NCBI RefSeq assembly: GCF_009931435.1
Contig: NZ_CP043414.1
Source of the DNA: Escherichia coli
GTDB taxonomy: Bacteria; Pseudomonadota; Gammaproteobacteria; Enterobacterales; Enterobacteriaceae
Reading direction: 5' to 3' (one strand)
DNA: 64,000 nucleotides
Made by a program: the position numbers and the translations under genes. The notes beneath the pieces were generated by a model. It did no database searches and was not told where the DNA came from. It saw only the letters and a program-made list of their open reading frames with translations. Of this stretch, positions 1-48,718 are shown piece by piece (the stretch's first letter is position 1; every line of letters starts with the position of its first letter).

Positions 1-936
1 CCGGAACAGATTGATTTGATTGATTTACTGGTGCAGTTGTGGCGTGGCAAGATGACAATTATCATCTCTGTCATTGTTGCTATTGCCCTGGCTATAGGGT
101 ATCTGGCCGTTGCCAAAGAAAAGTGGACTTCCACAGCTATCGTTACTCAACCTGATGTGGGACAAATCGCTGGTTATAACAATGCCATAAATGTGATTTA
201 TGGTTCGGCAGCGCCGAAAGTGTCTGAGATCCAGTCGATGTTAATTGGTCGTTTCAGCACGACATTTTCTGCATTAGCAGAAACGCTGGATAATCAGGAA
301 GAACCTGAAAAACTGACCATTGAGCCTACCGTTAAAAATCAGTCATTACCTTTAGCGGTTTCTTATGTGGGTGAAACACCTGAAGGTGCGCAGAAACAGC
401 TGGCGCAGTATATCCAGCAAGTTGACGACCAGGTAAATGAAGAACTGGAACAAGACCTGAAAGACAACATCGCGCTGCGTATGAAAAACTTGCAGGATTC
501 TCTGAAGACGCAGGAAGTGGTCGCTCAAGAACAGAAAGATCTGCGTATCCGTCAGATTCAGGAAGCGTTGCAGTATGCGAATCAGGCGCAGGTGACAAAG
601 CCGCAGATTCAACAGACACAGGACGTAACCCAGGATACTATGTTCCTTTTGGGGAGCGAAGCGCTGGAGTCGATGATTAAGCACGAAGCGACCCGTCCGT
701 TGGTGTTCTCATCAAACTACTATCAGACTCGTCAAAACCTGCTGGATATCGACAATCTTGACGTTGATAAACTTGATATTCATGCTTACCGCTATGTAAT
801 GAAACCGACGTTACCTATTCGTCGCGATAGCCCGAAGAAAGCAATTACCTTGATTCTGGCTGTGCTGCTGGGCGGTATGGTGGGCGCGGGGATTGTGTTG
901 GGGCGTAACGCACTGCGTAATTACAACGCGAAGTAA
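1..936 (+). CDS. wzzB: O-antigen chain length determinant WzzB, 5'-truncated by window edge
   Basis: ORF reaching the window start; protein has the Wzz/Cld N-terminal TM segment and coiled-coil Q/E-rich periplasmic region; conserved position next to hisI. Confidence 0.85.
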   Translation, partial: PEQIDLIDLLVQLWRGKMTIIISVIVAIALAIGYLAVAKEKWTSTAIVTQPDVGQIAGYNNAINVIYGSAAPKVSEIQSMLIGRFSTTFSALAETLDNQEEPEKLTIEPTVKNQSLPLAVSYVGETPEGAQKQLAQYIQQVDDQVNEELEQDLKDNIALRMKNLQDSLKTQEVVAQEQKDLRIRQIQEALQYANQAQVTKPQIQQTQDVTQDTMFLLGSEALESMIKHEATRPLVFSSNYYQTRQNLLDIDNLDVDKLDIHAYRYVMKPTLPIRRDSPKKAITLILAVLLGGMVGAGIVLGRNALRNYNAK

Positions 937-952
937 TCTTTTTGGTTTTAAA

Positions 953-990
953 GAAAACGGGCAGGGTGGTGACACCTTGCCCGTTTTTTT
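953..990. terminator. Bidirectional rho-independent terminator between convergent wzzB and hisI
   Basis: GC-rich inverted repeat AACGGGCAGGGTGGTGACACCTTGCCCGTT flanked by T-run on plus strand and A-run upstream. Confidence 0.5.
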
Positions 991-1031
991 GCCGGATGCG
1001 ACAACAACATCGCATCCGCTTACCCCGCCAC

Positions 1032-1636
1032 TCACTGATGCCGTTTACGCAGGTTCTCAATTACCGTCGTTAAATCCAGATCCTGATCCTGCAACAACAC
1101 CAGCAGGTGATACATCAAGTCAGATGCCTCGTTGGTCAGCTCAAAGCGGTCATGTACCGTTGCTGCCAGTGCGGTTTCCACGCCTTCTTCGCCCACTTTC
1201 TGCGCAATGCGTTTGGTGCCGCTGGCATACAGTTTGGCGGTGTAGGAGGTTTCCGGGTCGGCAGATTTACGTTCGGCGAGCAGTTGTTCCAGTTGATGCA
1301 GGAACAGCCACTGGTGAGCGGTGTCGCCGAAGCAGCTGCTGGTGCCTTTGTGGCAGGTTGGCCCGATGGGATTCGCCAGCACCAGTAATGTGTCGTTGTC
1401 GCAGTCCGGCGCAATGCTCACCACATTGAGAAAATTGCCCGAGGTTTCGCCTTTGGTCCACAGTCGCTGTTTAGTGCGCGAGAAGAAGGTGACTTTACCG
1501 CTTTCGATGGTTTTGTCCAGAGCTTCCGGGTTCATGTAGCCCAGCATTAACACTTCGCCAGATACCGCGTGTTGCACAATCACCGGCATCAGTCCGTCGG
1601 TTTTTTCCCAGTCCAGTTCGCGACGTTGTTGTTCTG

Positions 1637-1643
<7 letters not shown>
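1032..1643 (-). CDS. hisI: Bifunctional phosphoribosyl-AMP cyclohydrolase / phosphoribosyl-ATP pyrophosphatase
   Basis: 203 aa ORF, last gene of his operon, overlaps hisF stop; recognised HisIE sequence. Confidence 0.95.
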
Positions 1644-3721
<2,078 letters not shown>

Positions 3722-3722
<1 letters not shown>

Positions 3723-4788
3723 TACAGCACTCCTTTCGATGAGGGCAGGGTGTCGCCTTCCACGCGGATGGCCTGGCGCAGGGTGCGACCAAAGGCTTTA
3801 AAGAGACTCTCAACACGGTGGTGATCGTTTTTACCTTTGGTTTTCAGGTGTAGCGTCACGCCCATGGTGTATGAGAGCGAACGGAAGAAGTGCTCGATCA
3901 TTTCGGTGCTGAGATCGCCCACGCGCTGGTAGGTAAACTCGGCTTTATATTCCAGGTGCGGGCGACCAGAGATATCCAGCGCGCAGCGGGCAAGGCATTC
4001 GTCCATCGGCAGTACAAAACCAAAGCGGCAAATACCGCGTTTGTCGCCAAGAGCAATTTTTAATGCTTCGCCCAGCGCCAGGCCGGTATCTTCGACGGTG
4101 TGGTGATCGTCGATATAGAGGTCGCCTTTGACATTGATTTCCATGCGGAAACCGCCGTGGGTGGCGATCTGATCCAGCATGTGATCAAAGAAGCCAACGC
4201 CGGTGTTAATCTTGCTGCCACCTTCGCGATCCAGCCACACCTGGGCGTCAATCTGCGTCTCTTTGGTGTTGCGCACTACATGGGCGTAACGGTCTCGTTT
4301 AGTGAGTTGCTCGCCAATCATTGGCCAGTTCAGGGTTTCGCGGTCGTAGCGTAAACCATTAATGCCCATGTTTTCCGCCAGTTGAATGTCGGTCGCGCGA
4401 TCGCCAATTACATAACTGTTGGCACGATCCATCGCTTGCTCAGCCAGATAACCCTCCACCAGTTTTACTTTCGGCTTACGGCAGTCGCACTCATCGGCGG
4501 GCAGGTGCGGACAAATCAGCACTTCATCAAACTGCACGCCTTGCGAGGTGAAGATCTGCATCATCAGGTTGTGCGGGCCATCAAAATCCGCTTGCGGGAA
4601 ACTTTGTGTTCCCAGACCATCCTGATTAGTGATCATCACCAGCTTGTAGCCCGCTTTTTGCAGCTTCAGCAATTCCGGGATCACGCCCGGTTCAAAGGCG
4701 AGTTTGTCAAAGCGGTCCACCTGAAAATCACTCGGCGGTTCGCTAATCAGGGTTCCATCGCGATCGATAAAAAGATACTTCTGACTCA

Positions 4789-4789
<1 letters not shown>
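3722..4789 (-). CDS. hisB: Bifunctional histidinol-phosphatase / imidazoleglycerol-phosphate dehydratase
   Basis: 355 aa from [14 protein letters not shown] start; operon order. Confidence 0.95.
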
Positions 4790-7160
<2,371 letters not shown>

Positions 7161-7165
7161 AGCGA

Positions 7166-8065
7166 TCACTCCATCATCTTCTCAATCGGCAGGACCAGGA
7201 TTGAACTGGCACCCAGCGCTTTCAGTTTTTCCATCGTTTCCCAGAACAGGGTTTCGCTACTCACCATGTGCATCGCTACGCGCTGTTGATCACCCGCCAG
7301 CGGTAGAATAGTTGGGCGTTCGGCACCTGGCAGCAGGGCGATGACTTCATCCAGGCGTTCGGTCGGTGCGTGCATCATGATGTATTTTGATTCGCGCGCC
7401 TGGATAACACCCTGAATACGGGTCAGCAGTTTGTCGATCAGTTGCTGTTTGGATTCTTCCATTTCGCCATCGCGCTGGATCAGGCAGGCTTTCGAGCGGT
7501 AGATAACTTCGACTTCGCGCAGGCCGTTAGCTTCCAGCGTGGCACCGGTGGAAACCAGATCGCAAATCGCATCCGCCAGTCCGGCACGCGGCGCAACTTC
7601 GACAGAGCCGTTCAGTAAGCAGGATTTAAAAGAGATACCTTTCTGGTCGAGATAACGCTTGAGCAGGTGAGGATAAGAGGTGGCGATACGTTTACCATTT
7701 AAGGAGAGCGGACCGTCCCAGGCTTCATCAACCGGCGTTGCCAGCGAAAGGCGGCAGCCGCCGAAATCCAGACGACGCAAGGTAAAGTAGCGCGGATCTT
7801 CACCCTGGGCGCGGCGGTTAAGCAGCTCTTCTTCCAGCACGTTTTCGCCGATAATCCCAAGGTCTACCACGCCGTCCATTACCAGACCGGGAATGTCATC
7901 GTCACGCACGCGCAGAATATCAATCGGCATGTTTTCTGCCATCGCGATCAGGCGCTGGGTGTGAAGATTGATTTTAATGCCACAGCGCGCCAGTAATTCG
8001 CGTGAGTCATCACTTAAACGGCCGGATTTCTGCATAGCTATGCGTAAACGAGTGTTGTCTGTCAT
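7166..8065 (-). CDS. hisG: ATP phosphoribosyltransferase
   Basis: 299 aa from [17 protein letters not shown] start; first structural gene of his operon. Confidence 0.95.
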
Positions 8066-8110
8066 TTTCTTATTCCTCTTTAAACCTGTCTGAACCGTTA
8101 TCAACCGCGC

Positions 8111-31767: not shown

Positions 31768-34700
31768 TCAGAAGGTCACATTCAGTGTGGCCTGACCGTT
31801 ATACCCTTCAGCGCTGCTGCCGCTGACGCTGTGGGCATAACCGGCCTGAACGCCCAGGGTGATATTTTCCCGGACACGGGCTTCCAGTCCGGCCTGCAGG
31901 TCCAGTGATGTGCCATTCTGTGAGGGAGAGAACGTCATCCCGCTGCCTGCAGTGGAAGTCCCCACACGCATATCTCCCCGGGAGCTGAAGGTGCGGATAA
32001 CAGAAGGCTGTACCCACCAGTTCACCGGTAATTCACTCACACTGTGTTTTGCACTGTCACGCAGGGGGGCACGGGATGAGGTGCCTTCGCCAAAGGTCAT
32101 ATCGTTGTGGCTGCCCAGACGGAAACCGGCACGCACATGTTGTGCACTGCCATGCCCGAACTTCACATAACCGGCGTTGTCCTTACCGTCATCCAGGGAA
32201 AGTCCCTGCCAGGTATACTGCAGTTGTGGCTCCAGCATCAGGTTGTCAGTGATACTGAAGGGCAGACCGGTTTCCAGTGAGCCCAGCCAGCCCCAGCCCC
32301 GGGCGCGGAAGTCGTTATTGTCCGATGACGCTTTCATGCTGTGGCGGGTTCCCTGTGCCACAATGTCAGCCCACAGGCCGGAGGACGTGTGTGTCAGATT
32401 CAGGTATCCGCCCAGGCTGCCGGCATCATCCCGGACCGTGCCGGCACGGGAGCCGTCATCATCCTTAACATCAACGGAAGAATGGCCAGCAGCACCATAT
32501 ACCCCCGCGGTCACAGACATACCGGCAACCTCTGTTCTCATCAGGTCACCCTCCAGACGGACGAATCCATAGCTGCCGCTGCTTTCCGGCGTGGCCCCAC
32601 GGGCAATACCGCCATTGTTATCGTGACCGAGATGACCGCCCTGAATGCTGAGACGGACGCTGTTGTTTTCACCATTTACACCGGTCTGATGGCTGCGGGA
32701 GCCTGCCACAATCCGGTCATAGTCCATTGCCTGTGTCAGCATGGAGGCATACAGGGGGACTTCTGCACGATAAGCATTTTCACTGCGCAGATACCAGCTC
32801 TCACCACTGTCCCGGTTGAGGGAGTAGTTAAAGGCACCGGCCTGCAGCCTGTTCCCCTGGACAAAGGCCCCTTCCTCCGTGGTGGCACCGTTAATGGCTT
32901 CCACCACCTGAATACCCTTACCGCTGGTCGCCAGCCCCGACGCACTGTTGCCGGCGTTCACCAGGTTCAGGATGGTTTTTCCGGTTGCCCTGCCGCCGTC
33001 AATGACCAGTCTGTCAGCATTGTTCTGTGCCATATCCGGGCGTACACGCAGGCTGATGGTGCCATTCTGTCCGTTCAGGTTTTTCACTTTCAGGGTTGCC
33101 GGTACGAACTTCCCTGTGCGGGTGGAGGTGAAATGAATCTGTCCGGCATGGCTGAGGTCATCCACCACCGACTGCACCGTGGCGTTATCGGGGATATTCC
33201 AGGTGGCACCGGAGGCGAGAGTGACATTCGTGGGGTCAATGGCACCGTTCAGCACAGTGCTGCCGGTCAGCTTCAGGGCTGTACCGCGCTGAGCAATGAC
33301 ATCCGTGGTGACGGTACTGTCGTTCAGCGTCAGCGTGCCTTCATTCAGGTTGACGGCTTTCTGGGTGAGTGTGGTGTTGCTGACAGTGAGTGTGCCACTT
33401 CCTGATTTTTCCACGCTGCCGTTACCGGTGAGAGAGCCTCCCTGCAGGAGTGCATCGCCTTCACGGATGGTCAGGGTATCGTTGTTCACCGTCTTCCCGG
33501 AAAGGGTAAGTATGGCGCCGTTATTCAGCGTGGTGGTGCCCGCCAGTGTGCCGCCCCTGGCGGTGAACAGTCCGCCATTTACCGTGGTATCCGTGGCCGT
33601 ATCACCGGCGTTCAGCGTGAATGAACTGCCTTTTTCCAGCATCAGGGCATCCGCCTGACCGCCTCCGATACTGAATGCCTTTCCGTCGCTCCGGGTACCA
33701 CTGACAGCGGCACCGGAATCGGCCAGCAGTACACCGCCATTTCCCATGGATACGGTGGTGGCGGTACCACCGTTGCGGACATCCAGCGTTCCGCCATCAT
33801 CCACGCGGGTATTAGTGGCTGTGTGTCCGGTCAGCACATCCAGGCGTCCGCCATTTTCCAGTACGACATTATCAGCTTTACCCTCCACAACCGAGAATGC
33901 TCCAAGGCGGTTTATGCCGGTAACGGTTGCAGCCGTACTGGTAACCAGTGCGCCGCCCTGCTTCAGGGTGACATTCGTGGCTGTACCACCGGCGTCCACC
34001 TGCAGTCTGCCCTTCTGATTAACGGTGGTATTCCCGGCCACACCCCCGTTTTTGACAATCTGCCAGCCGTCACTGTTCACAACAGTGTCAGACGCTGTAC
34101 CGCCGTTGTGCACATACTGGTATCCCCCATTCAGCGTGGTATCCAGTGCGTGACCATGTACAGTCTGGTCGCCGCCGGCATAAACCACAGTGGTATTTGC
34201 CGTTCCTTCAGTTCTCACAATCTGGCGACCGTTTTTATTGATGGTTGTGCGTACGGCATCCCCGCGAACAAACTGCCCGGTATCACCGTTTTCTGCATCC
34301 GGTCCCCCTTCCGCCCCGGTATTAACAACGGTATCCGTTGCCACTGTACCGGGCTTGACGACCTGCCAGCCCTTATCATTAATGACGGTTCCTGTGGCTA
34401 TCGCCCCCTCATGCATCCACTGTTCGCCACCATTCAGCGTGGTGTTCACTGCCCGTCCCTGAAGGCTCTGTCCGCCTCCGGCACTGATAACCGTGTCTGA
34501 GACACTTCCACCGGGGTTCACTCTCTGAAGACCACCACTGGTGACAGTCGTTTTGTTGGCTGTTCCGCCATCCTGTACCCATTGCCCGCCGGTATTGGCC
34601 TCGTTATCCGGCCCATACTCCAGCCCGGTACTGATGGTCATTCCGTTGGTCGTACCGAAGACAATCTGGTTGTCATGATTTTCCAGTGTTCCGCCGTTCA

Positions 34701-37315: not shown

Positions 37316-38800
37316 ATGTCATTCGGTCAGCCTTGTGATGAGTTTCCCCTGAGTTCGCTGCCTCCACTCATTCGTGATGCCGTTATTGAAGCTCAGCAAA
37401 TTACGCAGGCTCCCCTTGGGCTTGTGGCAGCGTCTGCCCTGGGCGCTGTTTCACTTGTCTGCCAGAATCTGATTGATGTCTGCAGACTGAATACACTGCG
37501 GGGGCCGGTCTCTCTTTTTTTCCTGACGCTTGCCGAGTCCGGAGAACGAAAAATCGCAGTGGACAAATTATTAATGAAGCCCCTGTATCAGCAGGAGATG
37601 CAGTTATATTCCAGATACAAAAGTGAACTGGCTGTCTGGAAAAACAAGGAAGAGCTTTTAAAGGCTCAGAAAAAAGCATTGTTGTCAAAACTGAATAAAG
37701 AACTCCGCAAAGGAGCGGATGAGTCAGAAACCCTCAGACAACTGGAAGTACTTCAGAAAAACAGTGCGGAAGAACCTGTGAGGTATAAATTCATTTTTAA
37801 TGATGCCACGACTGCGGCAATTAAGAATCAGCTTTGTGGTAAATGGCGTTCAGTGGGTATTATGTCAGATGAAGCCGGTATTATATTTGATGGATATACC
37901 CTGTCTGAGTTGCCATTTATTAACAAAATGTGGGATGGCTCTGTATTGTCTGTGGACAGAAAGAATGAACCCGAACAGATGATTGAAAATGCCAGAATGA
38001 CGTTATCCCTCATGGTGCAACCCGGTCTTTTTGACCGATATATGGAGCGAAAAGGTTCTGTTGCCAGGGACAGTGGTTTTCTTGCCCGTTGTCTTATCAG
38101 TAAACCTGCAACCACGCAGGGGAAACGCTTTATTAACGGAGCTGTGATTCCGGGAGGATCATTAACGGCATTTCATGAACGATTAATGGAACTGGCCAGA
38201 GGCAGTATTGAAAAATCCAGTGAGGATGAACGGTATTGTCTGCATTTTTCGCCTGAAGCGCAAAAAATATTTATTGAGCACTATAATGTTCTGGAGCAGG
38301 ATTTATCTCCCTCCGGTCCGTTAAGTGCGTTTCGGGGACATGTTTCAAAAAAAACAGAAAACATTGCAAGAATTGCAGCGTTATTTCAGTATTTCAGCTA
38401 TGGTGAAGGGAAAATCTCTGCCGATATCATGACGTCTGCTGTCGTAATAAGTTCGTGGTACACAGATGAATATAAAAAATTATTTGCGTTACCTGATGAA
38501 TCTGAACTGCAGCAGAAGGACGCCGAGGAGCTGTTCGACTGGCTCATTGAGGAGTGCCGCGGAGAATGCCCACCCCGTGTCAGGAAAAATTATATTCTCC
38601 AGTGTGGCCCGGGTCGGTTCAGAAACAGGAAAAAACTGAACGCATTGCTGAACATTCTTGAATCTCAGTTCAGGCTTTCTGTCGTGCCGGAAGGAAAAAC
38701 CATGTATGTTCTGCTTCCCCAGATAGCCAGTTTAAAGTTGTCTGATGTCTCTGGTATTTTTACCTCGGGTTATCACTACAATAAGCTGAGAGCGAAGTAA
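37316..38800 (+). CDS. DUF3987 domain protein (YfjI-like)
   Basis: 494 aa from MSFGQPCDEF with AGTGAGG RBS upstream; family assignment by recalled similarity to CP4-57 YfjI. Confidence 0.65.
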   Translation: MSFGQPCDEFPLSSLPPLIRDAVIEAQQITQAPLGLVAASALGAVSLVCQNLIDVCRLNTLRGPVSLFFLTLAESGERKIAVDKLLMKPLYQQEMQLYSRYKSELAVWKNKEELLKAQKKALLSKLNKELRKGADESETLRQLEVLQKNSAEEPVRYKFIFNDATTAAIKNQLCGKWRSVGIMSDEAGIIFDGYTLSELPFINKMWDGSVLSVDRKNEPEQMIENARMTLSLMVQPGLFDRYMERKGSVARDSGFLARCLISKPATTQGKRFINGAVIPGGSLTAFHERLMELARGSIEKSSEDERYCLHFSPEAQKIFIEHYNVLEQDLSPSGPLSAFRGHVSKKTENIARIAALFQYFSYGEGKISADIMTSAVVISSWYTDEYKKLFALPDESELQQKDAEELFDWLIEECRGECPPRVRKNYILQCGPGRFRNRKKLNALLNILESQFRLSVVPEGKTMYVLLPQIASLKLSDVSGIFTSGYHYNKLRAK

Positions 38801-40017: not shown

Positions 40018-41727
40018 GAGAATGTTCCTCCGGATGTTGTTAAACCAGCCGGTGTGGTCATGAAAACAACGCACCACCTTCACCGGCATAACAACCGGGG
40101 AGAAACGTAAAAAATAATCGGGAATGTGACCGCCAGGAGATAAACGGGGAGGTTACGGTGGCTGAGCCGTACCGGTATGCCGGGTGGTTGTTACGAAACG
40201 ATGCTTCCGCACGCGCGCGCGATAAAGAAGGGATGATTTTCGTGAGGAAGAGGGGAAAACTGGCGTTCTGATAATTGCAGAGTTATTTACGGGGCGGTTA
40301 CGATGGGGCAGACCGTGTCCGGTGGGCAGGCGACAGGTATCACCGATGGGATAAGACTGTCTGATTGGTATTATAAATATATAAGAGAGATCAAACACAT
40401 GAGATCAAATACATGAGTTCATATATGTGAAATAAACACGGTGAGTGTGATCAGTGGGCATGATGAGAACGCAGTAGCAACAGACTGCGCTATCCCTGAT
40501 AGCTGGCGTATAACCTGCGTATATAAAACGTACCAGCAACGCACGTGAACAGAGTGCATTAAGCATCCGTCGTTGACACCGACCTGGTGAGTGACAGTCT
40601 GAGAGACCGGTTAAGTGGTGGTACGGGAGTAATGAGTTTGGGGTGGGTACCAGAATGCCAGTCTGGCGGTATGCTGACAGTATCACGTTAATTGCAGCAT
40701 AAAGTGATGAGAGGCTAATGGAAGTTAAAACCAGAGCAGTTCCGTCGTTGTTCATCCCGGGAGACGCTGGAAAAAGTGATTTCCCACACGCGTTATAAGC
40801 TTACTCCAGCGGAGATGGAAGCCTTCAACTCTGCGGTCGATCACCGACTGGCAGAACTGACAATGAACAAGCTTTACGATCGTGTTCCCGCTTCAGTCTG
40901 GAAATATGTCATCTGAGCGTTCGGTAATCACAACTGCATCGCGCCAGGTGTTATCCGCTTTGTGATTCTTATTGGCTCTTCTCAGGTTATTAAAAGCTGA
41001 ATATGTTCCTGTTGTCGGGAACCAGGATAATACCGGGAGCGTTAAGCGGTATAGCGACAACAAAGAATTCGAAATCAAAAGGGAATGGTGCCGGAGGCGT
41101 GGGCGGTAATAGGCTGATTTTCAGGTATTACCGGCTTACAACGTGTGGTTGATATTGAGGGGCTGTGAGTTTCGCGTATTTGTCAGAAACCCAGATGAGT
41201 TTTCCTGTATGGGACGAAATAAGGCAGCGGCAATACCTGGAAAATTTAATATGGTATGAAGGAGAACCTGTCGGTTACGCTTAATATACACGGTACACTG
41301 TCAGCTCAGGGGATACATGAACCGTTATCTCACCAGCTACACAGTATACACACACTGACGCTGACAGTAGTCAGCAGGACCACAATAATCAGCGCCAGCA
41401 GTATGGTAACGATACGGTCTGTATTCCGGTAGTAGCCGAAGGGGTCGACAGAACCACAATACGGGCAACACACTGTATTATTAGTAATCGCGTTTCCACA
41501 GTCCCTGCACTTCTTTTGCGTATCACCATAACTCCCTCCTCACAGCCTTACCCGTAACCGGTTTTTTACATTAAAAAACAACGCTGAAAATTCAACCGTC
41601 AGTCCGGAGACGACCGTTCGGGTTATCACAGAGTGCCTGAGACAGTGTCCTGCCGGAGGTCACTTCAGGGACTCTGCGCATTTTTTACGACGTGGCTATT
41701 CCGTATGAACCATACGGAGATTTAACC

Positions 41728-42297
41728 ATGACCTACAAATACAACCCCTTCTGGCAGCAACGTATTCGTGAGACGGTGCGGCACGCACTGAATGTTCATC
41801 CCCGCCTGACGGCATTGCGGGTTGACCTGCGTCTCCCGGATGTACCGGCAGCAACGGACGCAGCTGTGATATCCCGCTTCATCAATGCCCTGAAAGCCCG
41901 AATCGACGCTTACCAGAAACGTAAGCATCGGGAAGGTAAACGCGTGCATCCCACCACCCTGCATTACGTCTGGGCCCGGGAGTTTGGGGAGTTCAAAGGT
42001 AAAAAACACTATCACCTGATGCTGCTGGTCAACCGGGATACCTGGTGTCGTGCCGGTGATTACCGCGCTCCGGAGTCTCTGGCCGGGATGATTAAACAGG
42101 CGTGGTGCAGTGCCCTGGGAGTGGATGTCGGGTGCCATGCCACGCTGGTGCATTTTCCGGCCTGGCCGGCGGTGTGGCTGGCGCGTAATGATGACACCGG
42201 CTTTCAGCAGGTGCTGGAACGTGCTAACTATCTGGCGAAGGAGCATACCAAAGCTCACTGCACCGGTGAGCGCAACTTTGGCTGCAGTCGTGGCTGA
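41728..42297 (+). CDS. YagK/YfjJ-family protein (inovirus Gp2-like domain)
   Basis: 189 aa from MTYKYNPFWQQRIRE with GGAG RBS; family assignment from recalled features. Confidence 0.55.
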   Translation: MTYKYNPFWQQRIRETVRHALNVHPRLTALRVDLRLPDVPAATDAAVISRFINALKARIDAYQKRKHREGKRVHPTTLHYVWAREFGEFKGKKHYHLMLLVNRDTWCRAGDYRAPESLAGMIKQAWCSALGVDVGCHATLVHFPAWPAVWLARNDDTGFQQVLERANYLAKEHTKAHCTGERNFGCSRG

Positions 42298-42462
42298 GCC
42301 AGACAGACGAGTTATCTGACTTCAGTGTGATGACGTGTTCACGGCCACCACACTGATTTTCCCTTATGAGACTGAACTGAAACCGCCATTCACACCTGAC
42401 CACGCTGCCCGTACCGGGACGGCTGTTGCCTGCGTGTCGTCTGACGGTAAGGAACATATACT

Positions 42463-42855
42463 ATGTACGCAAAATCCTTTCTCGCTCTTGATGGCAACGG
42501 ACGTCTGACGGGCGCCCGTACAGCACAGGCCGCACCTTATGCTCACTACACCTGCCACTTGTGTGGCAGTGCACTCAGATACCATCCGCAATACGACACT
42601 GAACTTCCCTGGTTTGAACACACTGACGACAGGCTGACAGAGCACGGTCAACAGTGCCCTTATGTCAGGCCGGAGCGCAGAGAAATACAGTTGATTAAAC
42701 GTCTGCAGCAATTCGTACCGGATGCCTTACCCGTGGTGCGTAAAGCCAGCTGGCACTGCAGACAATGTCACCACGATTATTATGGGGAGCGGTACTGCAC
42801 ACACTGCCAGACCGGAGGTTTCAGTCTTCCCCGGACAGCTCAGCAACTGTCTTGA
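42463..42855 (+). CDS. Zinc-ribbon protein with CxxC…PWFEH motif (paralog 1)
   Basis: 130 aa; CHLCGSAL…LPWFEH…WHCRQCHHDYYGERYCTHC; paralogous to ORF at 44019-44423. Confidence 0.55.
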   Translation: MYAKSFLALDGNGRLTGARTAQAAPYAHYTCHLCGSALRYHPQYDTELPWFEHTDDRLTEHGQQCPYVRPERREIQLIKRLQQFVPDALPVVRKASWHCRQCHHDYYGERYCTHCQTGGFSLPRTAQQLS

Positions 42856-42864
42856 ACGTAAAAA

Positions 42865-43851
<987 letters not shown>

Positions 43852-44018
43852 ATGCGTTATGGCGTACTGACAACTGTTCGGGTTTCAGATGAGTGGCTCA
43901 GTGTATGCGCCATTCGCTGAGCTACGGGCTATGAACCCCTTGAGGGATCGGGCTGCATACACCTTGCCAAATCTAATCACAGTTATTTTAACCAATTGTC
44001 AAGATACAAGGAGGAGAT

Positions 44019-44423
44019 ATGCGAATTCTGAACTGCTATATGGCGAATGACAGCAAAGGCCATTTTGTTACGGCGAAAGAAGCCGCGAAGAACAACCGAC
44101 AGGACGTTTTGTGCTGTGTGTCCTGTGGTTGTCCGTTAACACTTAAGCGGGGCAATGACGGACAACCGCCGTGGTTTGAACATGACCAGATGACTGTTGC
44201 TGCGAAAATCCTGCTGCGATGCACCTGGCTTGACCCGGCAGAGAAAGAGGCCCGTCGTTTGCATCTGCAGGGCATGACGGTTCCGGATTATACGGTGAAG
44301 GTGAGAAAGTGGTTTTGTGTGATGTGTGACGAAGATTATGAGGGGGAAAAGTGCTGCCCGCGTTGTGGTACCGGGGTATACAGCAGGGATAGGGGGGCTG
44401 CAGGAGGGCAACTGGAAGGATAG
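44019..44423 (+). CDS. Zinc-ribbon protein with CxxC…PWFEH motif (paralog 2)
   Basis: 134 aa; CVSCGCPL…PPWFEH…WFCVMCDEDYEGEKCCPRC; strong AGGAGG RBS. Confidence 0.55.
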   Translation: MRILNCYMANDSKGHFVTAKEAAKNNRQDVLCCVSCGCPLTLKRGNDGQPPWFEHDQMTVAAKILLRCTWLDPAEKEARRLHLQGMTVPDYTVKVRKWFCVMCDEDYEGEKCCPRCGTGVYSRDRGAAGGQLEG

Positions 44424-44713
44424 GAACTGAGCGGTTCAGTCGCGGAAATCAGTTGCAGAGCTGTAATGATATCTCCGGGAGTGCTGCGTTGGTAGGGGCA
44501 TCCCGGGATAGAGAAATTTTAGCACTTTGCCCTGAATGATTGTAGACGTCCCGAGTACTCGTACCGGCCTGAGTTATTACAGTTAGATATTCGCTTTTTC
44601 TCCCGCATACTTCACAGCTGTCAACGACGGATGAAAAGTGGTTCTTCCGCAACTTGGGTGGAAGAAAATGGATGAAACTTTCTGGTGAACAAAGATCTAA
44701 GCTGATTTAAGTT

Positions 44714-45390
44714 ATGGGCAACGCAATGCACTCTCTTAAGACACTTTTAAAGTTACCTTGCGGATGGCGATGCAGTCGACAAATTATTAGCTCTGACGGT
44801 ATAACCCTCCATCTCCACGGAAAACGCAAAACAGCACAATGTCCTGAATGCTTTAAGCGTAGCGACTCTGTTCATAGTTGTCGTCGGCGCCGGATACAGC
44901 ATCTACCCTGCTCAGGGCAGACGCTATGGCTTGTATTTTCCGTCCGCCACTGGTACTGCCGTAACCCGGCTTGTTCACGTAAAATTTTTGCCGAGTCGCT
45001 TGCTCCCTTCGCCAGTTCACACCAGCAGTCTTCACAGGCGTTACAAAATTAACAACGTCAACTGGGATTAATAGCTGGAGGTGAGGCTGGAAAACGGGCT
45101 GCAACGGCAGCGGGTCTCCGTTGCAGTGCTGATACTCTTCTTCGCAGGCTTATCAATACCCCGGAGACGAAACAGTCAGGCGCGCCTCATGTCGGTATTG
45201 ATGAGTGGGCGTGGCATTGGGGCCACCGTTACGGTACGTTAATATTCAATCTTGATACTCACCGCCCCCTGGTCCTGCTTCCCGGCCGTGATCAGCGTAC
45301 GCTGGCGACCTGGTTCAGAAAAGGTCCGGAAATACAGGTTGTATCGCGTGATCGCAGTGGAGTCTATGCGACAGCTGAGGTAGCCTGAGT
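44714..45390 (+). pseudogene. ISL3-family transposase remnant (N-terminal zinc-finger region, frameshifted and 3'-truncated)
   Basis: N-terminal Cys/His zinc-finger ORF followed in another frame by …HVGIDEWAWHWGHRYGTLIFNLDTHRPLVLLPGRDQRTLATWF…VVSRDRSGVYA. Confidence 0.6.
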
Positions 45391-45439
45391 TTAACGGACA
45401 CTCCTTCCTGAAATAGAATGGCATCAGAAGGAGCTAATA

Positions 45440-45648
45440 ATGAGCAGAAAAACCCAACGTTACTCTAAAGAGTTCAAAGCCGAAGCTGTCAGAACGGTTC
45501 TTGAAAATCAACTTTCGATCAGTGAAGGCGCTTCCCGATTATCTCTTCCTGAAGGCACTTTAGGACAATGGGTTACCGCCGCCAGAAAAGGGCTCGGTAC
45601 TCCTGGTTCCCGCACGGTGGCTGAACTGGAATCTGAAATTCTGCAACT
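45440..45648 (+). pseudogene. IS3-family orfA fragment truncated by IS30
   Basis: MSRKTQRYSKEFKAEAVRTVLE… HTH orfA-type sequence ending exactly at the IS30 inverted repeat. Confidence 0.6.
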
Positions 45649-46869
45649 TGTAGATTCAATCTGTCAATGCAACACCCCTTTCAATTATCTCTTTCGGTGT
45701 TTTGAACTTCAGTGTCTTTCTCGGTCTGTTGTTTAGCTGAGCAGCAACCAGATCTAGTTCATGTTGAGTATATTGGGCAAGACATGTCTTTTTAGGAAAG
45801 TACTGCCGAATTAGCCCATTTGTGTTCTCATTTGTTCCCCGCTGCCAAGGACTCTGAGGATCGCAGAAGTAAACTTTAACGCCGGTGCTGACAGTAAATT
45901 CTAGATGTCTGGCCAGTTCCATTCCTCTGTCCCATGTCAGTGATTTTCTGAGTTCTGACGGTAAACTCAGGAATTTGTCGGTAAGAGCCTGATTTACTGA
46001 GACAGAATCTTTGCCCCTGAGTCTGAGGATGATCGTATAACGTGATTTTCGGTCTACAAGTGTGGCTATATGAGAGTTTTTTGTACCTGAGACTAAATCG
46101 CCCTCCCAATGCCCCAGAGAGCGTCTGTTATCGATATTTCGGGAACGTTCGTGAATTGGTGTTCCGTTCACTATGTTAATCGTACCTCTTTCGCCTTTGC
46201 GGGTATGACGCCTGCCATGGCGAAGGCTATGCGACCGTCGCAGATGCTGTATATTCAGGTGGTGTAGCGCTTCACGGCTACGAAAGTACAGCGTTTTATA
46301 AATTGTCTCAGGTGATATTCGCAGCGTTTTTTGACGTGGTTTTGTTCGCCTTAACCATCCTGATATTTGCTCTGGAGACCATTTCATCTCCAGCTTTTCC
46401 AGAACAAGCTTTCGCAATGGCAAATTTTGATCCAGTAAGCACGGTTTTGGCCTTTTCGCCATTCTGTTGGCTCGGTTATTAGCATCAACAGCTTTGTAAT
46501 AGCGTCTGCCCCGATTACGCTGAACTTCACGTGAGATCGTCGAAGGACTGCGATTCAGCGCAGTAGCTATCGCACGAATGCTCATTTTGGCTGACAAACC
46601 AGCTCGTATCTCCTCGCGCTCAGACAGTGTCAGGTGAGCTACAGCCCGCTTACGCTCATGGGGTTTTATGCCGCCAGTATCCCTTAACATAGTGAAGATC
46701 GTTCCGGGTTTTGAACCCAGGATATTCGCTATTTCACTGAAGCCTGTTCCGTTCTTCCATAGTTCAAAAACAGAGGCTTTTTCCTCTGCTGTAAATGTTC
46801 GTCTCATTCAAAAAACCTCCGCAACCCCATGTTTTCACATAACTGTTGCGTTGACCAATTGAATCTACA
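45649..46869 (-). mobile_element. IS30 (1221 bp, complete)
   Basis: Terminal inverted repeats TGTAGATTCAAT… at both ends; encodes 383-aa IS30 transposase. Confidence 0.9.
45656..46807 (-). CDS. IS30 transposase
   Basis: 383 aa MRRTFTAEEKASVFELWKNGTGFSEIA… with DDE motif region. Confidence 0.9.
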   Translation of the reverse strand: MRRTFTAEEKASVFELWKNGTGFSEIANILGSKPGTIFTMLRDTGGIKPHERKRAVAHLTLSEREEIRAGLSAKMSIRAIATALNRSPSTISREVQRNRGRRYYKAVDANNRANRMAKRPKPCLLDQNLPLRKLVLEKLEMKWSPEQISGWLRRTKPRQKTLRISPETIYKTLYFRSREALHHLNIQHLRRSHSLRHGRRHTRKGERGTINIVNGTPIHERSRNIDNRRSLGHWEGDLVSGTKNSHIATLVDRKSRYTIILRLRGKDSVSVNQALTDKFLSLPSELRKSLTWDRGMELARHLEFTVSTGVKVYFCDPQSPWQRGTNENTNGLIRQYFPKKTCLAQYTQHELDLVAAQLNNRPRKTLKFKTPKEIIERGVALTD

Positions 46870-47120
46870 GCGGCTTTTTTTAATATGTCCCGTTCGTCGG
46901 TAACCCGTTTCAGCTCTTTCTGGAGACGGCGGATCTCGGCCGGAGCATCTGACTGTTCTTTATTAGTGGAAGAATCCGGACCGTACTTCTTTATCCAGGC
47001 ATAAAGGCTGTGGGTGGTGATATCGAGACGTGTTGCAACGCTGGCAACAGAATAACCGCGATCAACAACCTGTTTGACTGCTTCAGTTTTAAACTCTTCG
47101 GGATAACGCTTACCGCTCAT
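46870..47120 (-). pseudogene. Second, different IS3-family orfA fragment truncated by IS30
   Basis: MSGKRYPEEFKTEAVKQVVDRGYSVASVATRLDIT… ; frame runs into the IS30 end. Confidence 0.6.
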
Positions 47121-48172
47121 GGGCACTTCTCTTTAAGCCATCTTAAATGACTCTGAGGTGTCTGTTAAACCCGTGGCGATTCAGTACAAAACACAACAAT
47201 AGCTTCATGATATATAAATACGTGATGACGAGTGGTACTCCGCATGGTTATTTAACTTCTCAGCACCACTAATGATCCTGAGCAACTTCGTATTTGGGCC
47301 ATTGCCATGGAGTAGAAAGCTGTGTCTGAGAATGCAGAATTTGAGAAAAGAATTAGCTTTCTTGGAGAGCTTCTGAAAATGGCACGCTAACAACGTTTTG
47401 TTAAAAAATGTGAATCACTTGCCGGGGCTGCATTTTCTATTCGAGGAGAATGTTGACGTAGATATTACAGAAATCTCAGCGCATCAGGATAAACTGCTAC
47501 CTTAGGTCAACCACCAAAAGAAAATACAATACGTCCAGTTTGTATGCCTTTAATAACACATCTTCTAAATGTTGAAGAATTATCCCGCCTGCTGAAGAAC
47601 GTTGCTCTGAGTGTGATAAACCTTTTTATTCTTGATGATGTCAGCGAGAAGATGGAATATATCCCCGACTGGGTCGTGGTTACCCGGTTAAACATCTGGT
47701 GGCGCTAATAAATCTGGCAGGTCACATTCTGTTGAATGCTGTGACAGTGCCTTACCGAGAGAGCGAAATTGTGGTGTTCTAGTGCATAGTCGCCACCATT
47801 CCGGATAATTCTATTGCGTTGTTTTACAAGTTCTTTTACAGCGCAGATCTGTCGCTGACGTTGAATCAATAGCCTGGATTTCAGAACACAATGCCTGTTT
47901 GCTGGTTGGTCCGGCAGTAGCATTAATTCATTATCTGAATGAAATGTGTCAATCCACAGAAACCGCTGTCAATGACGCATTTTGTCGGACGTTAACACGA
48001 GAAAGTTTGGCTATTCCGTAATGCCATCTTATTTCGTAATGGATTGAGAATGCTGGATTTTTAATTATATTACGCGCAGTATTAATCGCGTAAATGTTTT
48101 GCGGTCAGCAACGGTGGGGGATCCATTGTTCTGTTCAATGAATACCATCATACATTTGAATCAGGAGTCGGT

Positions 48173-48718
48173 ATGATGATTTTGGTGACGGGGGGCGCAC
48201 GGAGCGGGAAGAGTCGCCACGCAGAGGTGCTTATTGGGGACTCTTCACAGGTTCTGTATATCGCTACCTCGCAAATCCTTGATGATGAGATGGCTGCACG
48301 GATAGAACATCATCGGCAAGGCCGCCCGGAGCACTGGCGCACAGTGGAGCGCTGGCAACATCTTGATGAATTAATTCATGCAGACATTAACCCGAATGAG
48401 GTTGTGTTGCTGGAATGCGTTACCACAATGGTGACTAATCTGTTGTTTGATTATGGCGGCGATAAAGACCCTGATGAATGGGATTATCAGGCGATGGAAC
48501 AGGCGATTAATGCTGAGATTCAGTCGTTGATTGCTGCCTGCCAACGTTGCCCCGCAAAGGTTGTATTAGTGACTAACGAAGTGGGAATGGGGATTGTGCC
48601 GGAGAGTCGTCTGGCACGACATTTTCGTGATATTGCCGGGCGGGTAAATCAGCAGTTGGCCGCTGCGGCAAATGAAGTATGGCTGGTGGTTTCTGGTATT
48701 GGAGTAAAAATCAAATGA
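48173..48718 (+). CDS. cobU: Adenosylcobinamide kinase / adenosylcobinamide-phosphate guanylyltransferase
   Basis: 181 aa with P-loop GGARSGKS; overlaps cobS start. Confidence 0.9.

Follow-up and report, generated by a model that had tools for sequence, protein, structure and literature searches.

IS30 generates a target-site duplication (TSD) of 2 bp, prefers nearly palindromic hot spots and its own inverted repeats (IRs), and forms IR-IR junctions that attack hot spots to give deletions and inversions (PMC9333248). In Escherichia coli K-12, IS30A interrupts an IS911 element, and 184 bp remain of IS30B (PMC9333248, Fig 3 legend). The occurrence of IS30 inside IS911 in K-12 is thereby already in the literature, and several arrangements of IS30 with IS3-family elements can be set beside the locus that we report here, which lies in a stretch of 64,000 nucleotides of an E. 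coli chromosome (hereafter the window).

The closest of these are as follows: the K-12 IS30D locus: this consists of the 5' part of IS911 (+), IS30 (-), the 5' part of IS600 (-) and the rest of IS911, with IS911 ending at the hot spot, IS600 represented by bases 327-1, and IS911 resuming 127 bp past the hot spot. We take it to be the locus near fec that is annotated insN-2 / insI-3 / insM / insO-2. As in the window, two different IS3-family orfA 5' fragments converge on a complete IS30 that has no TSD; the partners, however, are IS911 and IS600 in K-12 and IS600 and an ISEhe3-like element in the window. Moreover, only about 1 kb was lost in K-12, inside IS911, and both of its joints are at the DILKKA hot spot, whereas the left joint of the window is 54 bp short of it. 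The K-12 IS30A locus of the CP4-6 region: here too the homologous codons of an IS3-family orfA carry IS30, but as a simple insertion with both IS911 halves and the TSD AC. The K-12 IS30B remnant: an ISEhe3-like 5' fragment 98% identical to that of the window is adjoined here at the identical base, but by the IRR end, whereas it is the IRL end that adjoins it in the window. The ATCC 8739 chimera: this joins an ISEhe3-like 5' part, IS30 and an IS911 3' part. The IS30 dimer or IR-IR junction rearrangements, of which Olasz, Stalder and Arber in 1993 and Kiss and Olasz in 1999 have reportedly given accounts, and which Olasz et al. 2022 (PMC9333248) also treat: these prefer hot-spot targets and, as in the window, the end lies exactly at the IS30 tip with no matching duplication round the remaining copy. 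The evidence for these events comes from plasmids and laboratory strains, whereas the mechanism at the window is deduced from a natural end product.

The window adds a further instance of this known pattern, and the biology involved is known. As a whole, the region may well be a scar left by insertion sequences in several steps, at that end of a CP4-44-type E. coli island which faces cobU.

Components of the locus

Beginning in the O-antigen cluster, the window passes through gnd-ugd-wzz, the his operon, sbcB-dacD-sbmC-yeeA and tmaR and reaches the CP4-44-type island, which carries yeeR, agn43, a GTPase gene, a YfjI-family gene and small regulators. The island stops immediately before cobU-cobS-cobT, and the region under study is its junction with these genes (Table 1). 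In other strains, the PGAP annotation of the orthologous DNA shows a series of transposase pseudogenes surrounding a single intact IS30, and an Rfam scan of 41500-48500 returned zero matches. Many strains have inherited the structure: 195 of 5426 complete E. coli genomes contain the 3.1-kb region 44400-47500, counting those in which at least 80% of it is covered in one place per genome, and a 50-mer test recovered the exact left junction of the window (IS600 base 273/IS30) in 34 complete genomes.

Table 1. Features at the junction of the island with cobU; positions are those of the window.
Feature	Position	Strand	Remarks
ISL3-family element remnant	44640..45375	+	left boundary approximate; left end resembles an IR, GGTTCTTCCGCAAC at 44640, its placement likewise approximate
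ISL3 transposase pseudogene	44714-45375	+	3' part missing
IS600 (IS3 family), bases 1-273 of 1264	45376..45648	+	left IR TGAGGTAGCC... and orfA codons 1-69
Complete IS30	45649..46869	-	1221 bp; ends read directly from the sequence
IS30 IRR	45649-45674		left end of the copy, begins TGTAGATTCAATCTGTCAATGC
IS30 transposase gene	45656-46807	-	383 aa
IS30 IRL	46844-46869		right end of the copy, reverse complement, finishing ...GTTGACCAATTGAATCTACA
ISEhe3-like IS3-family element, bases 1-314 of 1229	46870..47183	-	orfA codons 1-84
ISEhe3-like left IR	47183		TGAATCGCCACGGG, read on the minus strand
cobU-side flank	47184..48172		common to all locus variants; 99.4-100% identity across strains that differ on the left
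IS4-family fragment	about 47681-47869		inside the cobU-side flank; PGAP annotation of the orthologous region
Cobalamin biosynthesis gene, 3' fragment	about 47878-48021		lies shortly before cobU (48173); annotated by PGAP in the orthologous region

The leftmost component is an ISL3-family remnant with a Zn_ribbon_ISL3 domain (Pfam, E=4.8e-8), in which the DDE part and the right end are absent. It shows 95.8% nucleotide identity to the 5' part of an ISL3 element found on a plasmid, which has an intact 1422-bp transposase gene, and the PGAP label of the orthologous DNA is ISL3 family transposase pseudogene. The preliminary description of this DNA had called the transposase both truncated and frameshifted: the truncation stands, but the 221 codons lie in a single frame that is broken by one in-frame TAA, at codon 113. 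A candidate for the missing right end at 37765, with a 12-bp inverse match to the putative left end, fails to extend and is attributed to chance. The remnant is cut off at 45376, precisely where the left IR of IS600 starts; hence, IS600 had inserted into the ISL3 element.

The IS600 fragment is 99.6-100% identical to IS600 copies in other genomes. Its orfA begins with an ATG at 45440, of which 69 codons plus 2 nt remain, encoding an HTH_Tnp_1 domain (E=2e-18). For comparison, the full 1264-bp IS600 was rebuilt from strain ABU 83972; a complete IS600 copy also yielded the full 100-aa OrfA, for which the sources use the name IS600 ORF1, and the window encodes its first 69 residues. The window thus has a fragment and not a complete IS600, which comprises 1264 bp, orfA and orfB with a frameshift, both IRs and a 3-bp duplication. 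On the other side of IS30, the ISEhe3-like fragment is 99.0% identical to bases 1-314 of a full 1229-bp copy, and owes its name to source annotations ('ISEhe3 orfA') of an identical OrfA. Its orfA starts with an ATG at 47120, retains about 84 codons with an HTH_Tnp_1 domain (E=1.5e-18), and stops at the hot spot used by IS30, ...GACATATTAAAAAAAGCCGC/. With 38% identity between their OrfAs, the flanking fragments belong to different elements. The window, which was searched throughout, contains neither the 3' part of IS600 nor that of the ISEhe3-like element, the missing partner ends that the preliminary description had suggested looking for elsewhere in the genome.

The IS30 copy between them encodes a transposase identical to WP_001254932.1, the standard IS30 protein, with HTH_38 and rve domains (Pfam) that fit an N-terminal HTH and a DDE core. 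Its 26-bp IRs start with TGTAGATTCAAT and match at 23 of 26 positions. It is flanked by ...GCAACT/ on the left and /GCGGCTTTTT on the right, such that the outside dinucleotides are CT (45647-45648) and GC (46870-46871), and the 2-bp TSD expected around a simple IS30 insertion is absent. These unequal flanks indicate that the copy is not a simple insertion, while leaving its membership in IS30 unaffected. The window contains no other IS30. Judging from its sequence, this copy looks intact and could still move, whereby it could still cause rearrangements here; the composite of IS30 and IS3-family fragments is quite possibly without a function of its own.

Much of this had been anticipated. The preliminary description recognized a complete IS30 at these positions, with which both the end mapping and the identity of the transposase agree, and placed a plus-strand IS3-family orfA cut at about codon 70 to its left and a different minus-strand one cut at about codon 85 to its right; these are now identified as the orfA genes of IS600 and the ISEhe3-like element, and the divergence of the two OrfAs upholds their being distinct rather than parts of one element. 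It had also noted the CT and GC flanks and the lack of a 2-bp duplication, and had named precise end mapping as a check against its own reading: this mapping found no TSD.

A recurrent IS30 target in IS3-family orfA genes

IS30 recurs at the homologous ...DILKKA(A/T) codons of several IS3-family orfA genes. These comprise: IS600, after base 327, with the TSD AC, where IS30 is in the same orientation as IS600 in ABU 83972 and MS1718 and in the opposite orientation in 55989; IS911, again with the TSD AC, in K-12 (IS30A) and Yersinia aleksiciae; the ISEhe3-like element, in both orientations, in the window, KH_005, K-12 (IS30B), Silvania and Tatumella; and a more distant IS3-family member in a Methylococcaceae metagenome bin. 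The shared left arm of the hot spot is ATATTAAAAAA(A/G)GCN, followed by the duplicated dinucleotide (NC). In the ISEhe3-like element the target reads ...ATATTAAAAAAAGCC-GC-GGCG and falls in the 'DILKKAA' codons of orfA. Both IS3-family breakpoints at the window appear to relate to one conserved IS30 hot spot. The dinucleotide that adjoins IS30 at the ISEhe3 hot spot varies between GC, GT and AC. A correspondence of the orfA target to the lambda LHS hot-spot region (lambda 33244-33498) was also considered, but the best alignment, 15/26, is unconvincing.

We see an even chance that the conserved '...(D/E)ILKKA(A/T)' stretch of orfA is a natural IS30 hot spot across genera. If so, IS30 would systematically disable IS3-family elements; when it later joined the hot spots of neighbours, the DNA between them would be deleted and chimeric IS3 remnants would form; and one IS would thereby act against another in shaping the margins of genomic islands. 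The repeated targeting of one conserved IS3-family orfA sequence, through which IS30 would regularly destroy and shuffle IS3-family elements, is the only wider point of the locus, which beyond annotation matters little. Locally, the region accounts for the cobU end of the island carrying only pseudogenes, and would mark a deletion that removed island DNA.

The two junctions and their variants among strains

Across the position of the right junction, the sequence of an uninterrupted ISEhe3-like copy is ...GACATATTAAAAAAAGCC GC GGCGTACTTCGC (codons D-I-L-K-K-A-A-A-Y-F-A) and continues past the break point as GC/GGCGTAC. The window has the native ISEhe3-like sequence up to this GC (base 314), followed directly by the IRL of IS30. 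The junction thus reads as an ordinary hot-spot insertion seen from one side, of the simple kind in which a GC is duplicated. In strain S1-CAM-01-C the whole ISEhe3-like element is present in minus orientation beside the flank with the IS4-family fragment, the cobalamin gene fragment and cobU, and its junction with this flank has 15 extra bp, AATATATCTACTGAT. The arrangement in S1-CAM-01-C represents the ancestral state on the right side. KH_005 is the sole strain with both halves of the ISEhe3-like element around IS30 at the locus; the flanks are GC and GT, and the orientation of IS30 is opposite to that in the precursor sought here. That precursor, an ISEhe3-like element (-) carrying IS30 (-) with both halves at this flank, is found in none of the genomes of the collection. 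On the left side, likewise, an intact IS600, or an IS600::IS30 with both halves, at the junction of ISL3 and IS600 is absent from the 5426 genomes. The comparison with related genomes that the preliminary description had recommended for finding the ancestral arrangement has accordingly delivered it for the right side, in the intact element of S1-CAM-01-C, but not for the left.

The left junction exists in a commoner form. In strain C6 and many others, IS600 at the same locus comprises bases 1-327 and ends ...AAAAAAGCAAC/TGTAGATTC, which joins the IS600 hot spot (...GCAAC/) to the IRR of IS30. This position-327/IS30 junction occurs in 337 genomes, a count that includes some complete IS600::IS30 composites at other loci, as against 34 for the 273 junction of the window. 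The latter is 54 bp shorter and rarer, and it lies off the hot spot, at IS600 position 273, yet it is still exact to the IS30 tip. In the flanks, IS30 and the ISEhe3-like fragment, the variants of strains such as C6 and ST167 isolates are identical to the window; they differ in having IS600 1-327 up to the hot spot, and many of them also have an IS2 at about 47229 of the window. Going by frequency, which is what suggests the order, the 273 junction would be a 54-bp-shorter derivative of the 327 junction. A slip between GCAACTG repeats does not account for the 54 bp: it predicts GCAAC/TGTAGATTC, whereas the window has GCAACT/TGTAGATTC. The window keeps one more T and the full tip, which indicates that a complete IS30 end was rejoined to IS600 base 273, and transposase action produces new joints with just such an exact IS end. 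The junction variants (IS600 273 or 327, with or without IS2) are usable as lineage markers.

Origin of the structure

The reading that we consider best, and hold with moderate confidence, is an insertion of IS30 in the ISEhe3-like element followed by one or more IS30-associated deletions. It has five steps, of which the first three are read from the sequence and the comparison of strains, while the last two we infer: IS600 inserted into the ISL3-family element (step 1); the ISEhe3-like element lay in minus orientation beside the cobU-side flank (step 2); IS30 entered it after base 314, at the hot spot (step 3); the IRR end of IS30 may then have been joined to DNA further left, initially at IS600 position 327, which would have removed bases 315 onwards of the ISEhe3-like element, bases 328 onwards of IS600, the remainder of ISL3 and the intervening stretch (step 4); and a second event at the same IS30 end may have removed 54 bp more, putting the joint at IS600 273 (step 5). 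The agent would most likely be the IS30 transposase: when an IR-IR junction (IS30 dimer) attacks a target within its own molecule, the result would be a deletion with an exact IS end and without a TSD. Of the marks expected from such an adjacent deletion, a joint exactly at the tip, an unchanged old joint and the lack of a duplication are all seen; a hot-spot target is seen for the 327 junction, but not for the 273 junction.

The product of step 4 is the same whether the transposase or recombination between IS30 copies made the deletion, and it could equally be the work of recombination. The corresponding alternative, which is possible though we would advance it only tentatively, is homologous recombination between two direct IS30 copies, one opposite in orientation to its IS600 host and the other in the same orientation as its ISEhe3-like host, that deleted the DNA between them and left one hybrid IS30 with a flank from each. 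Both of its ingredients occur elsewhere in E. coli, each with its two halves and a proper duplication: IS600(+)::IS30(-) in 55989, and an ISEhe3-like element carrying a same-orientation IS30, as two-piece matches. Further, the hot-spot preference makes two nearby IS30 insertions plausible, 1.2 kb of homology is ample, and chimeric IS30 flanks are common, as in ATCC 8739. Nevertheless, it requires one more insertion than the transposase route, no genome has both IS30 copies at the locus, and it accounts for the 327 junction but not for the 273 junction, which calls for a further non-hot-spot insertion or a separate deletion. Ten IS30 copies compared for a recombinant signal have 12 variable sites, mostly singletons and mixed, which do not discriminate. 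The preliminary description had left the choice between these two routes open while holding that one of them fused unrelated DNA, and this fits the joining of a foreign IS600 exactly to the IS30 tip, the native sequence of the right junction to base 314, and the intact element retained in S1-CAM-01-C.

Two other explanations carry far less weight. It is very improbable that IS30 made a simple insertion between IS600 and ISEhe3-like fragments that were already fused, with the duplication later mutated away: imperfect dinucleotides do occur at IS30 hot-spot insertions, such as the GC and GT of KH_005, but here both bases must have changed (CT versus GC), the right break coincides exactly with the hot spot, past which an uninterrupted element runs on natively, the left break of other strains at the same locus is 54 bp further on, and the fragments are fused without IS30 in no genome. 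An assembly artefact, wherein the collapse of a repeat over two IS30 copies gave a false chimeric join, is more improbable still; IS copies are a classic cause of misjoins in short-read assemblies, yet the identical left junction recurs in 34 complete genomes and the whole arrangement in 195, from many laboratories and platforms.

The MS15047 variant has IS600 1-327 and TGTAG, then a plus-orientation ISEhe3 variant with IS30 and an internal loss of 195 bp; of the inversion models that would derive it from the window type, none fits in one step. In different strains, nested losses of 639 and 654 bp are seen beside the left end of ISEhe3.

Length variation beside the ISEhe3-like element

The DNA neighbouring the left end of the ISEhe3-like element (47183/47184 in the window) varies among strains at the cobU-side locus: relative to the window, KH_005 carries 654 bp of extra sequence beside this end, and S1-CAM-01-C carries 15 bp. 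These strain-to-strain differences in length suggest that nested deletions adjoin the left end of the ISEhe3-like element too. A further form of the locus, ending in the same cobU-side flank, is seen in MS15047, where IS600 1-327 is followed by TGTAG, the opening 5 nt of an IS30 inverted repeat. A one-step path from the window arrangement to the MS15047 variant was sought, and none was found.

Coordinates and composition of the features discussed
Sequence	Feature	Coordinates	Strand
Window	small protein gene, DUF7828 + Zn_ribbon_11	42463-42855	+
Window	IS110-family transposase pseudogene, internal stop	42865-43851	-
Window	small protein gene, DUF7828 + Zn_ribbon_11	44019-44423	+
Window	IS4-family fragment; cobalamin biosynthesis gene, 3' end only	47681-48021	
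S1-CAM-01-C (L016)	extra DNA, 15 bp	~7230-7245	
KH_005 (L017)	extra DNA, 654 bp	7453-8106	
MS15047 (L007)	IS600 1-327; TGTAG; ISEhe3 variant (+) with IS30 inside and a 195-bp internal loss; cobU-side flank	4061-6374	
ATCC 8739 (L004)	5' part of ISEhe3-like element; IS30; 3' part of IS911	932-3374	
K-12 lineage WG1 (L023)	5' part of IS911; IS30 (IS30D); inverted 5' part of IS600; rest of IS911	2078-4674	
O157 strain 9000 (L005)	IS600 1-327; 47 bp of IS30 IRR	3787-4161	

IS30 copies at the orfA hot spot

The dinucleotide next to IS30 on the 5' side of ISEhe3 is GC, AC or GT (window 46870-46871 and loci L017, L004, L007 and L015), and at K-12 IS30B the base preceding it is variable as well; IS30 duplications at the ISEhe3 hot spot are therefore often imperfect. 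The K-12 IS30D locus shares the convergent layout of the window, with both of its breaks at the orfA hot spot, the recurrent IS30 target at the DILKKA(A/T) codons. A further copy whose sides derive from two different IS3-family elements is that of ATCC 8739, flanked by GT and AC. In O157 strain 9000 IS600 ends in GCAGC and is fused to only a short remnant of the IS30 right end, followed by an autotransporter fragment; in O157 strains this fusion adjoins the urease cluster.

Surrounding remnants

Immediately upstream of cobU, the IS4-family fragment and cobalamin gene 3' end are probably the scar left by losing the remainder of the cob operon. Many related strains, with either left-junction type (IS600 broken at 273 or 327), carry an IS2 insertion at the position equivalent to ~47229; the window lacks this IS2. 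The two DUF7828 proteins are paralogues (~33% identical), with the IS110-family pseudogene lying between their genes.
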